Source of the DNA: Octopus vulgaris
Lineage: Eukaryota
Reading direction: 5' to 3'
Assembly: GCA_951406725.2 (NCBI GenBank)
Contig: OX597832.1
Span: forward strand, 33,852,001-33,916,000
Length of the DNA: 64,000 nt
In this document: positions 13,672-47,409 of the stretch, piece by piece
How positions within the stretch are numbered: position 1 is the stretch's first letter
Layout of the letters: each line of letters begins with the position of its first letter
The notes under the pieces: model-generated
Seen by the model: the letters and a program-made list of their open reading frames with translations, nothing else
The model's database searches: none
What the model was told of the DNA's origin: nothing
Program-made: the position numbers and the translations under genes

Positions 13672-13719
13672 TTGTCAGTGAACAGGTCGCGGATTTTAGC
13701 GATGAAAATATTTTGACAA
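13672..13719 (+). ncRNA. Minimal type-I hammerhead ribozyme motif, G3-C8 core variant, within a short element about 13658-13860
   Basis: TTGTCA-GTGAACA-G-GTCGC ggatttta GCGAT-GAAA-ATAT-T-T-TGACAA: 6-bp stem I, 5-bp stem II, palindromic stem III. A fragment of the same element recurs at about 42501-42548. Confidence 0.7.
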
Positions 13720-13917
13720 GTTAAACTTAAATGTTGAAGTGAATCGAACGGCTTTTGTGTGTTTCTTAAATGGCTTACAAACACCTTCCACGCTGCAATT
13801 GTTTTCGTTTCAGCACACGATCTCAGATCAAATTACTTGCTATGCGAGTACATCTCCGTAATATATATATATATGTTTGTATATATATATATATATATAT
13901 ATATATATATATATATA

Positions 13918-14094
13918 TGTAGGTCCCGGGTTGAGTCGGGGTTAACCACAGTAAATAAGGTACTCAATACATAGCAGAGTAAATTAATTTATTTTATAGA
14001 AGGAGCTTCTACAGGACTAGAACTGTTTCATTCAAATGAAATCATTTGAATGAAACAGTTCTAGTCCTGTAGAAGCTCCTTCTATAAAATAAAT
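13918..14094. repeat. Perfect 53-bp-arm inverted repeat (13987-14039 / 14042-14094) at the end of a Penelope-like terminal segment
   Basis: Arms pair base for base around a 2-nt AA centre; each arm carries GAAACAGTTCTAGTC CTGTAG and AATAAA in its outward-reading direction. Confidence 0.9.
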
Positions 14095-14239
14095 ATATAT
14101 ATATACATACATAATATATATACATAATATATATATGTATGTATGTGTGTGTCTGTCTGTGTGTGTGTGTGTGTCTGTGTGTGTGTGTGTGTGTGTGTGT
14201 GTGTGTGTGTGTCTCTGTGTGTGTGTGTGTGTGTATGAG

Positions 14240-15152
14240 TGTGTTCTTTTTCTGTAGTTTCAGGCTCATAGCTGCGGCCATCCTGATGCACCACCGTTTT
14301 GCTTCACTGTTATTACTGAGAGCCTCCTCCAATATATGGCACTTGGTGAATAATGGAGTTTGATGTTGCTACCCTCATTTGCACCTCTTGCCGTGAGGAA
14401 GTTTCATCTGGGGCTCTCGACAGAAAAAGGTCCAGTTTTCATTTAAAACACCTGCATTTACTTTGTGCAGGTTTCTCAGGCTGTTCGGGAGAATATTAAA
14501 AAGCTGTGGGCCCCTGAAACCCAGGCTGTTGCAGAAGCTGGTCCTGAAGCGTGATGGCATTGCTGGGATTTTTTGCATTATGCAGTGTCGTCTCGTTTTG
14601 GCATTGGTGTAGCTTTCAATGCCAAAATTTGGCACAATTCCTTTCAAGATCTTCCAGATATATATTACTGCATACCTTTCCTGTCTTCTCTCCAAGGAGT
14701 AGAGACTTAACAGTTTCAACCTTTCTTAGTAGCTGAGCTGTTGCAAAAAGATGATCTTCTTTGTGAATCATCTCTGGATTGCTTCAAGGTCCGCTGTTAA
14801 TTTTACACTGGTGGGTGACCATAGCTGCGAGAAGTAATCCAGGCGGCTGAGGACGAATATCCGCCAGAGGACCATCATGGTTTCCTCATCTCTGCTTCTG
14901 AATGTTCTCAGGATCCATTCTTTCAGTCGTCTGCACTTTGTCTGCACTTTGTCCCTCACTGACTTAGGCTCTGAAATTGAAATTCCCTGTGAATCAGTGT
15001 ACTCTGTTTCATATTCAGTTTTAGACGCTGGTAGCGCAGGGCCTGGAATTTTTCAGAATTAAACTGCATATTATTATCCTCAGCCCATCTGTAAATTGAT
15101 TCCAACTCCTGCAGCAGGTGTGCAACATCGCTGGGTTTCTGTATCTCTTGCT
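14240..15152 (-). mobile_element. 5'-truncated, frameshifted CR1-like LINE (RT C-terminal half and 3' tail); same family as 51410-52765
   Basis: ORF pieces IYRWAEDNNMQFNSEKFQ, WILRTFRSRDEETMMVLW, LDYFSQLWSP, LYSLERRQERY, GPQLFNILP; tail GGTGGTGCATCAGGATGGCCGCAGCTATGAGCCTGAAACTA. Confidence 0.9.
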
Positions 15153-15274
15153 GAACAAGAGAGACAGAGAAAGGTAGAAACAAGGAAAATTCCACTTATA
15201 TATGAACACTATACAAATATTCTTTTAAAAAAACTTTTCTTTTAATTTTTCTAAATTTAATTATTTAATTGTTA

Positions 15275-44641: not shown

Positions 44642-44761
44642 TAAAGTTAATCCAAACAAGAAAACACAAAAAAACACAGCAACGCGACAACGTGGAACAA
44701 AGGAGAAGGAAAGATCCCAAGAAGGGAAGACAGAGGAAAAAGATTGCTGGCGGTGCTCACG
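44642..44761 (-). mobile_element. Deleted copy of the 41724-41936 element lacking the hammerhead
   Basis: Aligns with both ends of that element; 80 nt are missing between two TTTGTT microhomologies. Confidence 0.8.
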
Positions 44762-45928
44762 AGGTCACACATATATATATATATATATATATATATATAT
44801 ATGTAGGCACGCGGCTAAATTAAAAATGTCGAATATAAATATACCATATGGATAGAGTATATATTTTGTATTTTTGACTTTTGATTTTGATTTTGACTCT
44901 TGAGCGCTACGATGGATTTTGATTTTATTTTTGTTTTTGTTTTTGTTTCCAAGCTATGCGGATCTTTATCCGTATAGCAAAGTCTTATGTTTCTACATAT
45001 ATATTAGGAAAAACCTACAAACTTTGTTTTCATGTTATTGTATTGCATAGGATTACCTTGATTATTTATAAATGACCCAAAATAGGATGTTATATTTTAT
45101 TTTATATGTCTTTCGTATATATTTTTATTAATGCACCCATTTTTAAAAGCAATGTTTTTTTTAAAAAAAGCAATGTTGTCAAAATTAGAATGTTTATATA
45201 AGTATGTGTATAGCAAAGCATATGTATTTGTAAGCATGCGTATCTGTGTATGTGTAAGTGAAAGTATGTTTGTGCTTAAGCACACATATACACGACGGTA
45301 TGTATATGTATCCATTCAAACTTGTGTATGTATACTGGTCTCTATAGATGCCAATAACACCGTTACACTGCTTGTATACATAAATTTTTTTCTTATTTCG
45401 TTTTTCCCCCACCCCTCCTTCGTTCCTTTTTCTCTCTCTCCCTTTCTTTCGTTCCCCCTCCTTGCCCAGTATATAAGAATTGCTACATAGATGAATTTTA
45501 GCTTGCGTGCGAGACGGTTTGCGTGAATATATGTACACATGCTTTTATGTGTATATTTAGATTTATATTAATACGTCTGTATATGTATGTATGGCGTTTA
45601 CGCGCATCCTTTTGTGTATGTTGATATATATATGTAGATTTTAATATAAATATGTATTGCAGTATTTATAACAGGTTTAATTTCTATGCATTAATTTGCA
45701 CTGTCTTCATTAACGTCAATAGGTTTTTCCTCGGATTTTATAATTTTTATAATTTTTATAATTTTTTATAAGTTTTTATATATATATATACATATATCTT
45801 TGACCTTTTTGTTTATCGCTCGAAGATTGACCGTTTTTTCTAAAGGGCCAATCAAACAAGTCCATTTCTTTTTAAAGGTGTAGCGTTTGTAAGAGTATAG
45901 ATTGAATTGATATATCAGTTCCATTCTA

Positions 45929-45980
45929 GCAAAAACTGTCTGATGAACGGCAACGAGAAACTCAGAGTAACAGATTTTGT
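45929..45980 (+). ncRNA. Type-I hammerhead motif, canonical core, within a short element about 45795-46006 flanked by (TA)n
   Basis: GCAAAAACTGT-CTGATGA-A-CG GCAA CG-A-GAAA-CTCAGAG-TA-ACAGATTTTGT; long stem I, GNRA loop II, GUA site. Confidence 0.75.
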
Positions 45981-47334
45981 TGAATTTTCTGCTGCTTAAA
46001 ATAAAGTATATATATATATATATATATATATATATATATATATATATATATATATATATATATGTATATATGTATATATATATGTATATATGAAAATATA
46101 TGTATATATGTATACGTATATATGTATATATATGCATGTATATATAAATATATATATGTATGTATTTATATATTTGAATTTACTCACAGAATAGATAGAA
46201 TGATACACAAACACACGCATATGTATGTATATATATATATATATATATATATATATATATATATATATATATATATATATATACAGAGAGAGAGAGAGAG
46301 AGAGAGAGAGAGAGAGAGACATACATATGAATATGTGTATACATGAATGAATTTACCTATGTATTTCTAACCACCCACATGCACATACATACACGTATAA
46401 ATGCCCCAGTGCCCTCGCAGGGCCTCAAAGATAGAAATAATAAAACTCATAAATAAAAAATGTATGTATATATATATTTATATATATATATATATATATA
46501 TATATATATATATATATATATTTATATTTATATATATATATGTATATGTGTATGCATGTAGGTGAATGTATGTGTTCATACATGTATGTATAAGTGCGTC
46601 TGTGTATATATATATATATATATATATATATACATACTTTTGCACATACTCATAAGCATACACAAAAAATGTGAATTATTATATATATATATATATATAT
46701 ATATATATATATAATTCTATGAATCACTTGTGTGTGTGCAAATGTGCGCGTATATACATACACATACGTTTCTAGATAATCATAACCCTAGAAATACATA
46801 AGTTCATGGAAATATGCACTTCTATTAAATCCATTTCTATTTCTGTTTAGAATTTGGGAAAATGTGATCGAGTTCATCTCCATCTTGATAAAAAAAGATA
46901 TCAATATGTTGATTTAGTGCTTTTGTTAATATATAAAATACGAACTATTTTCACCGATTCAGCAAATGATGCGTTCACGTCTTCATAAGTTCGGTTATTC
47001 GTTGCGAAATATGGCGCTGCAATTCCCACGAAACTACAACGTCAATCGAACGAGCTTAATGATTATATAGCATCTATCATCTTCTCTATCTATCTATCTA
47101 TATATCTATATATCTATCTATCTATATATATATATATATATATATATATATATATATATATATATACATACATACTTACATACATACATACATACATACA
47201 TACATACATACATATATATATATACATCCTTCCATCCATCCATCCATCCATATATATAAATAGTCTTAGCTACAAAAGCGACATGAATTTCTTCCATCTT
47301 CTTGCTCTAACTGGTTAAAATTTTATTTATATAT

Positions 47335-47409
47335 TTGTGCAGCTGATGATGGCACTACATTTAAATTGATGTAATGATTGGATCCGCTTGAAACGGTCGT
47401 ACTGCGTAA
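47335..47409 (+). ncRNA. Type-I hammerhead motif, canonical core, long loop II, within a short element about 47262-47445
   Basis: TTGTGCAG-CTGATGA-(40 nt, GGC..GCT and TACAT..ATGTA pairings)-GAAA-CGGTCG-TA-CTGCGTAA; 8-bp stem I with two GU pairs. Confidence 0.7.

Follow-up and report, generated by a model that had tools for sequence, protein, structure and literature searches.

The window analysed here, a 64,000-nucleotide stretch of the Octopus vulgaris genome (contig OX597832.1, positions 33,852,001 to 33,916,000 of the forward strand), contains small hammerhead motifs embedded in dispersed repeats (Table 1). A preliminary description of positions 13672..47409 had listed nine sites with specified letters at core positions 3 and 8, all of which are present in the sequence, while a further motif at 8165-8207, outside that range, had been overlooked. 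All parts of a type I hammerhead, namely stem I, the core N3-(U/C)GAN-N8-A, stem II, GAAA, a short helix III, H17 and stem I again, are found at 9/9 listed sites, one of which carries U4C (41786) and two of which (36738 and 42055) have U3.G8 wobbles without a Watson-Crick pair. The proposed folds are nevertheless intact at only six sites (13672, 15275, 25741, 41786, 45929 and 47335), which pass the descriptor. The other three are decayed copies, with damage to stem II (35478 and 36738) or to helix III and stem I (42055), and proper folding is seen in their family relatives. The palindromic stem III attributed to most sites likewise needs qualification, as that of 41786 is ACGU and those of 45929 and 47335 are near-palindromes only. 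The published minimal layout for hammerheads of Penelope-like elements (PLEs) has an extra base between positions 9 and 10.1 plus a G10.1-C11.1 pair. This extra base occurs in the 13672, 41786 and 42055 families, there is none in 15275 or 8204, and 25741, 35478, 45929 and 47335 have a 1x1 mismatch instead. The non-G H17 was imposed by the descriptor and is not evidence.

Table 1. Hammerhead-bearing features of the 64-kb window (positions are those of the window).
Feature	Coordinates	Strand	Hammerhead	Core 3-8	Helix III	Remarks
Minimal hammerhead, old family (site 8204)	8165..8207	-		A3-U8	ACCGGU	
About 200-bp repeat	13657..13860	+	13672-13719	G3-C8	AAUAUU	no ORF linked
3' end of young autonomous PLE	15154..15363	+	15275-15311	U3-A8	ACCGGU	
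Non-coding 356-nt unit	25534..26011	-	25746-25791 (site 25741)	U3-A8	ACCUAGGU	1.34 tandem units between (TA)n tracts
Old PLE leader/pseudo-LTR	35432..35817	+	35478-35568, decayed	C3-G8	ACAGCUGU	long stem II
Old repeat, 36738/42055 family	36663..36848, boundaries approximate	+	36738-36774, decayed	U3.G8		
High-copy repeat	41708..41938	+	41786-41820	C3-G8 + U4C	ACGU	no ORF linked
Second copy of 36738 family	42026..42148	-	42055-42091, decayed	U3.G8		
5'-truncated copy of very young autonomous PLE	44800..46006	+	45936-45973 (site 45929)	C3-G8		
Old repeat	47261..47443	+	47339-47405 (site 47335)	C3-G8	ACGGUCGU	no ORF linked

The density of matches is far above that of shuffled sequence. A strict scan of the window, with a Watson-Crick 3-8 pair and a palindromic helix III, gave 5 matches, whereas 60 local dinucleotide shuffles averaged 0.08 (0/60 reached 5), and a looser scan gave 8 against 0.68 (maximum 3 among 60). 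In a 400-kb sample made up of 40 arbitrary 10-kb stretches of the genome, 41 matches were found against 3.1 in shuffles, 37 of them Watson-Crick at 3-8 though pairing was not required. Where the 400 kb were scanned with neither the palindrome nor the 3-8 pair required, both were present in 23/26 matches versus 0.4 in shuffles, a self-complementary helix III accompanying every Watson-Crick match (23/23). Reversed-pattern controls produced 0 matches, compared with 577 and 1558. Loose descriptors do give false matches, among them three U.U matches from an abundant SINE-like repeat, in which only 4/28 copies have the needed letters, and an extra match at 25266 with no second copy in the DNA examined, which was not counted as a family. 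Chance folding in AT-rich repeats is nonetheless exceedingly improbable as an account of the motifs as a whole, being refuted by the shuffle-controlled scans of the window and the 400-kb sample. The motifs are of a known kind, RNA motifs that are likely to be self-cutting, the cutting itself being predicted from sequence. A large proportion of such motifs escapes standard ribozyme annotation by Rfam gathering thresholds or CUGANGA-only patterns: Rfam at gathering threshold reported no hammerhead in the 64-kb window, and a CUGANGA-only search, as had been anticipated, would lose 6/9 listed sites together with 18/37 Watson-Crick matches of the 400-kb sample (13 non-C-G and five with C4).

The sites had also been taken for a local cluster forming one large ribozyme-bearing system. 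With 37 Watson-Crick matches in the 400-kb sample and 8 in the 64-kb window, the latter lies at ordinary background density (5.9 expected, p ~0.24). The 34-kb span alone contains 7 matches against 3.1 expected (p 0.02-0.04), as would be expected of a true hotspot or of a single coordinated ribozyme locus, but the ends of this span were chosen around the matches, and the copies are of unequal age (100% to about 85% identical to their nearest relatives), lie on different strands and belong to different families, every copy having its own ends. Such a hotspot is thus very unlikely, and with unrelated families at background density neither the cluster nor the single system can be upheld. By extrapolation from the 400-kb sample there are roughly 250,000 motifs genome-wide, or about one per 10 kb throughout the genome, and the window accordingly represents a known kind of motif rather than a special cluster.

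The nine sites fall into eight high-copy repeat families, with 36738 and 42055 in the same family, and 8204 adds a ninth. The earlier count of about eight unrelated families was therefore right, and their assignment as unrelated repeats carrying Penelope-type minimal hammerheads is borne out. Their description as non-coding applies to five families at most, as at least three are the ends of protein-coding PLEs. A search for linked PLE ORFs physically tied such an ORF to 3/8 families (45929, 15275 and 35478), in two of which it is intact, and none was linked to the 13672, 25741, 36738/42055, 41786 and 47335 families or to 8204 at the loci examined. The parent of the 15275 family is a 4.43-kb unit with a 784-aa RT and GIY-YIG ORF. 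At one locus (L216) three hammerheads lie about 4.43 kb apart with 784-aa ORFs between them (hammerhead-ORF-hammerhead-ORF-hammerhead), and the window copy shows 87-88% identity to the ends of this locus. In Pfam, the 784-aa ORF matches RVT_1 above the cut-off (33.8 bits) and GIY-YIG just below it (E 3.8e-4, 21.1 bits), and the protein has no match among solved structures. The 45929 copy comprises the last 17 ORF codons, a 1.1-kb 3' region and the hammerhead, with (TA)n tracts on both sides. The same 17 codons end a 727-aa ORF localised between two hammerheads elsewhere (L138), and at least 40 copies of this family among the matches listed are 100% identical over 126 nt. The 727-aa ORF has no Pfam match, its Atlas neighbours at 0.96-0.99 include GIY-YIG + RVT_1 clusters, and it shares 21% identity with another PLE ORF (E 1e-6). 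At a third locus (L141), a 35478-family hammerhead is followed by the beginning of a decayed PLE ORF, and an adjacent inverted copy lies upstream. By motif resemblance, the 45929 and 35478 families are presumably Neptune-like, and that of 15275 is taken to be Penelope/Poseidon-like. A pair of 13672-family copies 3.6 kb apart, considered as a full element, proved to have arisen by local duplication and to lack a PLE ORF, and pieces of PLE ORFs beside some 13672, 25741, 42055 and 47335 copies have no shared register and were taken as separate insertions.

Downstream of the motifs the copies have fixed 3' ends at (TA)n, often two alternative ones, and inverted 5' copies also occur. (TA)5 is found within 420 nt downstream in 24/27, 19/21, 27/38, 23/26, 24/25 and 9/9 copies of six families, against a background of 29%, at sharp and family-specific distances. 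The two ends of the 13672 family lie about 88 and 147 nt past the cut site and those of the 47335 family at about 45 and 119 nt, while the 41786 family ends mostly about 105 nt past it, in each case at (TA)n. Partial tandems, inverted 5'-truncated copies, an optional 3' tail and (TA)n targets, all of PLE type, are present, and these insertion traits are clear for 25741, 45929 and 13672 and weak for 42055 and 8204. The 8204 family has 24 genome matches, and in its 25 aligned copies AUGACUA and GAAACCGGUA are mostly kept with diverged flanks.

The motifs are very probably minimal type I hammerheads in the terminal repeats of several PLE families and their likely non-autonomous derivatives, with truncated copies making up the remains found genome-wide. 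Following published PLE work (PMC4209133 and PMC11167929, each in part, and PMC8557442), the element protein would nick AT-rich DNA and reverse transcription would start 35-270 nt downstream of the hammerhead. As most copies would stop early, nearly every insertion would keep the hammerhead and lose the ORF. Tandem transcripts would join two motifs, with helix III pairing between them, and the parent elements are predicted to cut their own RNA, slowly, in dimeric form and probably assisted by the protein. Selection would act only on a few master copies, and the dispersed copies would decay. The five of eight families without an ORF, as well as 8204, fit this origin less readily, as does the weak (TA)n anchoring of the old families (6/15, 5/9 and 5/11 copies).

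The 356-nt unit of the 25741 family is non-coding, with one hammerhead per unit, and lies within the retrozyme size range of 170-400 nt. Its head-to-tail 355-356-nt tandems and copies beyond unit length, a size and layout as in animal retrozymes (PMC7229834, in part), would agree with the short families, and above all this unit, being retrozymes, whose tandem transcripts would be cut to monomers and circularised and the circles copied by the PLE reverse transcriptase. The dimer fold of the 25741-family motif is also its predicted minimum-energy structure, and retrozymes are traced back to PLE pseudo-LTRs in a preprint of 2026 (10.64898/2026.07.22.740005, in part). Linear tandem transcripts with internal initiation would, however, give the same layout, the unit has PLE-style ends, its two 3' ends of PLE type lying about 41-45 nt from each other, and most other families consist of single or inverted copies rather than short tandems. 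A retrozyme cycle is therefore quite unlikely, and it could coexist with a terminal-repeat origin for a subset of families. In the portions of the descriptions compared, non-LTR retrozymes of animals (PMC7229834; bioRxiv 10.64898/2026.07.22.740005) share with the 25741 family their ~350-nt non-coding tandem units, each with a type I hammerhead, whereas the latter, known here from DNA, is set apart by its variant cores, its paired 3' ends and clear inverted copies of PLE type. Contigs of four sequencing runs, none on record as RNA (three are presumed to be RNA and one is of unspecified type), cover the 356-nt unit, and in two runs they contain the tandem junction, which tandem DNA would also give; strand, ends and circles are not readable from contigs.

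Sister subfamilies of the 25741 unit have U3.G8 and C3-G8 cores, and helix III in this superfamily is ACCUAGGU, ACCAUGGU, ACUCGAGU or ACUCGGGU, each of which is self-complementary (in one case with G.U), even though its middle bases are unable to pair in the monomer. The U3.G8 subfamily, accounting for 21 among the first 100 matches listed of 577, forms one clade with 98/100 support and 3% internal divergence. The presence of C-G, U.G and U-A subfamilies and four self-complementary helices III in one superfamily indicates that pairing is kept and that wobble lineages have also spread. The most parsimonious order of change is C-G to U.G to U-A, an order which the trees do not settle, as the best tree nests the distant C-G group within U-A, and a topology with U-A as a single group remains compatible with the data (p-AU 0.31).

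Between families, the 3-8 pair and the helix III palindrome covary. All four Watson-Crick states occur at 3-8 and mismatch families are almost absent, in support of the covariation proposed at the outset and at odds with non-pairing combinations being equally common. That every family keeps 3-8 pairing holds if U.G is counted. The G3-C8 pair of the 13672 family is found in 20/21 rows, the remaining row being a rearranged inverted copy. Less expected under a PLE ribozyme are G3.A8, found in one 2-copy group of the unforced 400-kb scan, and C3.A8, found in 5 of the first 100 copies listed of the 42055 family. U4C occurs in at least four families, C4 being present in 22/28 rows of the 41786 family. 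Folding energies place the dimer hammerhead below two monomer folds for 6/7 motifs, but the dimer is the predicted minimum-energy structure for only 1/7, that of the 25741 family, which also counts against dimer cleavage.

In pairwise mutagenesis of a type III hammerhead, activity was low for all single and double changes made in this part of the core except the G-C swap (PMC9901934), and the spread of U3.G8 and U4C lineages is difficult to reconcile with such low expected activity. The motifs may be PLE-derived and their fold kept mainly as a structural signal, which would serve RNA dimerisation or let the PLE protein dock upstream of its internal start sites, and several families would then cleave little or not at all. 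The amplified U3.G8 subfamily, the recurrence of U4C and the low activity predicted for such cores all point in this direction, as do genomic copies that span the cut site intact. In the lizard PLE, moreover, hammerhead-dead mutants still insert in vitro, cleavage not being needed, and no RNA-seq reads end at the cut site (PMC11167929, in part). Against a mainly structural role, the 3-8 pair is part of the active conformation, a swap of this pair rescues cleavage in a PLE hammerhead (same source, in part), and all four Watson-Crick states are found with mismatch families almost absent. Such a role is improbable, and slow cleavage by the parent PLEs remains the preferred explanation.

The kind of system itself is known. 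Small PLE hammerhead variants that cleave as dimers were reportedly described by Lunse, Weinberg and Breaker (RNA Biol 14:1499). According to a review (PMC6765202, in part), these variants share with the octopus motifs a diminished stem III and PLE association; dimer cleavage is theirs and is only predicted here, and as they are known by description only, some of the core variants, or examples from cephalopods, may already be among them. PLE hammerheads, including U3-A8 cores, have been published (PMC4209133, in part; PMC3088659). The minimal metazoan hammerheads of Cervera and De la Pena (2014; PMC4209133, in part) share type I topology and a short helix III of palindromic sequence, a multitude of families in each genome, mostly as single copies from truncated PLEs, opposite-strand nearby pairs, a few that flank full ORFs and U3-A8 covariation. 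The portion of that supplement concerned includes the molluscs Lottia and Crassostrea, and no octopus hammerheads occur in the supplement file searched. In contrast to the 2,000-9,000 motifs given there, about 250,000 are estimated here, with different descriptors; helix III is here often 6-9 nt, and G3-C8, A3-U8, U3.G8 and U4C families are absent from the portion of its main text compared. The Poseidon element PAc of Anolis carolinensis (PMC11167929, in part) shares a pseudo-LTR hammerhead, AT-rich targets and paired genomic 3' ends, which in PAc derive from two internal reverse-transcription start sites and here lie about 34-74 nt apart depending on the family. The PAc cut site lies inside the ORF start, whereas here it is upstream of the ORFs, and the 3-8 swap rescues PAc cleavage, whereas 3-8 covariation is known here from the sequence. 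Neither a cephalopod hammerhead survey nor natural A3-U8, G3-C8 or U3.G8 PLE families were found in the literature searched, part of which was available in portions. The number of motifs and their host group may be new, and so, as judged from the text and searchable supplement of PMC4209133 and from the text of the preprint, may be the families with G3-C8, A3-U8, U3.G8 or U4C cores.

The role of PLE hammerheads is still debated, as cleavage is slow in vitro and dispensable for insertion in the one reconstituted system. In the octopus genome there are two young autonomous families whose ORFs are intact and whose hammerheads match, as well as a non-coding superfamily with C-G, U.G and U-A sisters, which makes the question of this role testable. 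The ~250,000 intact motifs would document how, in nature, the 3-8 pair has passed through each of the four Watson-Crick states, and U3.G8 and U4C lineages among them would have transposed successfully. If such cores cleave only with protein or not at all, PLE hammerheads could, as a tentative and rather less probable view, depend on protein or act as structural devices, their core being relaxed, and the sister subfamilies would then constitute a ready natural series for testing the role of the ribozyme in Penelope transposition. The motifs may also help to classify unassigned short repeats.

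The hammerhead motifs in the window are real and of a kind already known, and are notable for their scale and core diversity. All nine sites of the preliminary description (13672, 15275, 25741, 35478, 36738, 41786, 42055, 45929 and 47335) were found in the window sequence with the core letters ascribed to them. A strict descriptor, in which positions 3 and 8 were free and the palindrome optional, gave six matches. In five of them a Watson-Crick 3-8 pair is combined with a palindromic helix III, a combination with a chance level of 0.08 in 60 local dinucleotide shuffles. A looser descriptor gave eight matches, all Watson-Crick at 3-8, against 0.68 in shuffles, so that the window lies well above the proposed dinucleotide-shuffled control with either descriptor. 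Six of the nine sites satisfy the looser descriptor as hammerhead folds; the other three, at 35478, 36738 and 42055, are decayed copies whose relatives fold well. A tenth hammerhead belongs to an old family (see table), and for the one remaining match of the looser descriptor, at 25266, a second copy was not found among the loci retrieved. The genome comprises 2.8 Gb in 227 contigs, is microsatellite-rich and has a GC content of 34%.

Every site is a single copy of some dispersed repeat (852 to 1968 first-look candidates per site query, of which 40 were scored). Eight families do lie behind the nine sites, as had been suggested, with 36738 and 42055 belonging to one family. The copies differ in age. 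For the 45929 stretch, identity is 100% in all 40 copies listed, while the closest listed relatives of the 35478, 42055 and 47335 copies show 85-89% identity. The families had been called non-coding, which is true of the 25741 family, a 356-nt non-coding unit occurring as partial tandems and inverted pairs, but the 45929, 15275 and 35478 families are tied to Penelope-like element (PLE) ORFs. In two runs, contigs cover one piece of the 356-nt unit about tenfold more deeply than the remainder, and this piece is probably common to a much larger repeat family or to many short truncated copies. Another tandem short unit, of ~362 nt (U3-A8 hammerhead, helix III ACGCGU), was observed at other loci and is absent from the window.

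In L138, a locus of the 45929 family, a hammerhead is followed by an open 727-aa ORF and then a second hammerhead. The Atlas neighbours of the 727-aa protein include RVT_1 and GIY-YIG clusters, and it had no match in Pfam. The protein search for the 15275 family listed 141 matches, many within 784-aa open frames, and a U3-A8 hammerhead is located ~0.84 kb past the stop in both fetched 784-aa loci, while locus L216 carries three hammerheads spaced ~4.43 kb with ORFs in between. The 784-aa protein scores above the cut-off for RVT_1 and slightly under it for GIY-YIG. In L141 (35478 family) the hammerhead runs into the beginning of a decayed ORF with 32% identity to the 727-aa protein, and an inverted copy lies immediately upstream. 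The recommended search for linked ORFs thus succeeded for three families, but no partner was linked to the 13672, 41786, 42055, 47335 and 8204 families in the loci examined. In the 15275-family PLE, an upstream 446-aa open frame without a Pfam match overlaps the 784-aa reverse transcriptase frame by ~60 nt, which suggests a two-ORF or frameshift arrangement. The intact 727-aa element of L138 directly adjoins pieces of two other PLE families, forming a nest of three.

The first (TA)5 follows the cut site at sharp distances that are specific to each family (a (TA)5 within 420 nt has a background chance of 29%). Inverted hammerhead copies occur upstream in the 25741 (21/38), 45929 (14/25) and 13672 (4/27) families, and were not found in the 41786 (0/26), 15275 (0/21), 42055 (0/9) and 8204 (0/11) families. 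The accessible text of PMC8557442 and PMC11167929 describes such features as PLE signatures, namely paired 3' ends, inverted 5' copies and insertion at (TA)n targets. In many insertions of the 45929 family, two hammerhead-bearing 3' ends are joined head to head ~15 nt upstream of the core, and the resulting tiny palindromes could pass for MITEs.

Features of the window and of related loci, with the spacing between cut site and first (TA)5
Feature	Position	Strand	Details
Tenth hammerhead (8204 family)	8165-8207	-	A3-U8; 24 genome matches, 25-copy alignment
45929-family window copy	44800-46006		final 17 codons, 3' region and hammerhead; (TA)n tracts on both sides
High-depth piece of 356-nt unit	25944-26011
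Decayed LINE-type reverse transcriptase remnant	51341-52680		RVT_1 E 4e-19
Decayed LINE-type reverse transcriptase remnants	30384-31360, 14378-15052
tRNA-like stretch	36864-36922		Rfam tRNA, 31.3 bits
Head-to-head 45929 palindromes	L064:678-803, L058:1240-1365, L067, L047, L168:1906-2011
446-aa frame, 15275-family PLE	L216:3504-4841, 7937-9274	-
Nest of three PLE families	L138:1261-4226
~362-nt tandem unit	L174:8667, 9029, 9406; L186:9809
13672 family, first (TA)5			~88 or 147 nt
15275 family, first (TA)5			~55 nt
25741 family, first (TA)5			~174 or 221 nt
35478 family, first (TA)5			~233 or 267 nt
41786 family, first (TA)5			~105 nt
45929 family, first (TA)5			~37 or 108 nt
47335 family, first (TA)5			~45 or 119 nt

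Forty 10-kb stretches taken at round-number coordinates (400 kb) contained 41 matches, against 3.1 in 12 shuffles. Thirty-seven have Watson-Crick 3-8 pairs (24 C-G, 6 G-C, 6 U-A, 1 A-U), with one G.U and three U.U; the last were rejected as hammerheads, as they lie in a SINE-like repeat with the needed letters in only 4 of 28 copies. With palindrome and 3-8 pairing both optional, 23 of the 26 higher-scoring matches have both, against 0.4 in shuffles. The proposed cluster is not borne out, the window holding eight matches where 5.9 would be expected (p about 0.24). Seven fall in the 34-kb span, for which the expectation is 3.1 (p 0.02-0.04), but the limits of that span were set by the matches themselves. 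Extrapolation from this not strictly random 400 kb gives about 250,000 intact motifs genome-wide (bootstrap 160,000-350,000). Three query proteins detected only one PLE coding fragment in the sample, indicating that detectable coding parts are far rarer than hammerhead-bearing ends.

Among 15 groups of at least two copies, drawn from a query-biased locus set and with 45929 and 8204 removed by the score filter, the majority 3-8 state is C-G in nine, U-A in four (one tied with U.G), G-C in one and G.A in one. The G.A group has two copies only. The claim that all families keep 3-8 pairing stands only with U.G counted as a pair. For the 25741 superfamily, a pattern in which 3 and 8 were left free matched exactly at 577 places (reversed control 0), the first 100 listed comprising, by hand count, 57 C-G, 22 U-A, 21 U.G and no C.A. 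These copies are not independent, as the three states correspond to three subfamilies; the divergence is 11% between U-A and U.G units and about 40% between either of these and C-G. The U.G copies group as a single clade, and the order of change is not fixed by the tree (p-AU 0.31). The superfamily has ACCUAGGU, ACCAUGGU, ACUCGAGU or ACUCGGGU as helix III, and retention of self-complementary central bases is sensible only if one motif pairs with another. In the 42055 family, the first 100 listed of 1558 exact matches include 92 U-A, 5 C.A, 2 U.G and 1 G.A. Given this predominance of U-A, the window U.G copies represent a minor subfamily (U.G in 13 of the 16 nearest rows), and the C.A copies are read as putative post-insertion decay. 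With descriptors that restricted position 4 to U or C, C replaces U (U4C) in 22 of 28 rows of the 41786 family and in 5 of 6 from the unbiased sample, and recurs in further families. In the youngest family, 45929, the 2-bp stem II starts from an A.A mismatch at its base (window 45947-45956), where an older relative (L198:4984-5039) has an A-U pair; a 1x1 mismatch adjoins the core in four families.

Reverse transcription would begin downstream of the hammerhead and mostly stop early, which would explain why many insertions retain the motif. Tandem transcripts would allow helix III pairing between two motifs, and the dimer is predicted to be favoured energetically over two monomer folds in six of seven motifs, and to be the minimum-energy structure in only one of seven. 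Cleavage is predicted, by analogy with the lizard element, to be slow and probably protein-assisted. According to the accessible text of PMC11167929, hammerhead-dead mutants still achieved insertion in vitro, and that of PMC9901934, a mutational scan, reports low activity for all changes in this region of a type III hammerhead, a G-C swap excepted, which in that background would extend to U.G, U4C, U-A and A-U. Together these count against a strict need for cleavage.

The same motifs and their families, mostly as solitary copies, with opposite-strand pairs and U3-A8, already appear in the accessible part of PMC4209133, at about 2,000 to 9,000 motifs per genome; natural U3-A8 is also reported in that of PMC3088659, and up to 120,000 axolotl retrozyme copies in that of PMC7229834. 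In a comparison made without Lunse et al., the literature search found neither a survey of cephalopod hammerheads nor natural PLE families with G3-C8, A3-U8 or U3.G8. In an annotation of octopus repeats, 31 Penelope-like families are listed as recently active, with ribozymes unmentioned in the main text as accessible (PMC13282606). Retroelement remnants, among them three of LINE type, are the only recognisable coding sequence seen within the window, and the tRNA-like stretch just past the 36738 element is probably the head of a tRNA-derived SINE from a separate insertion.
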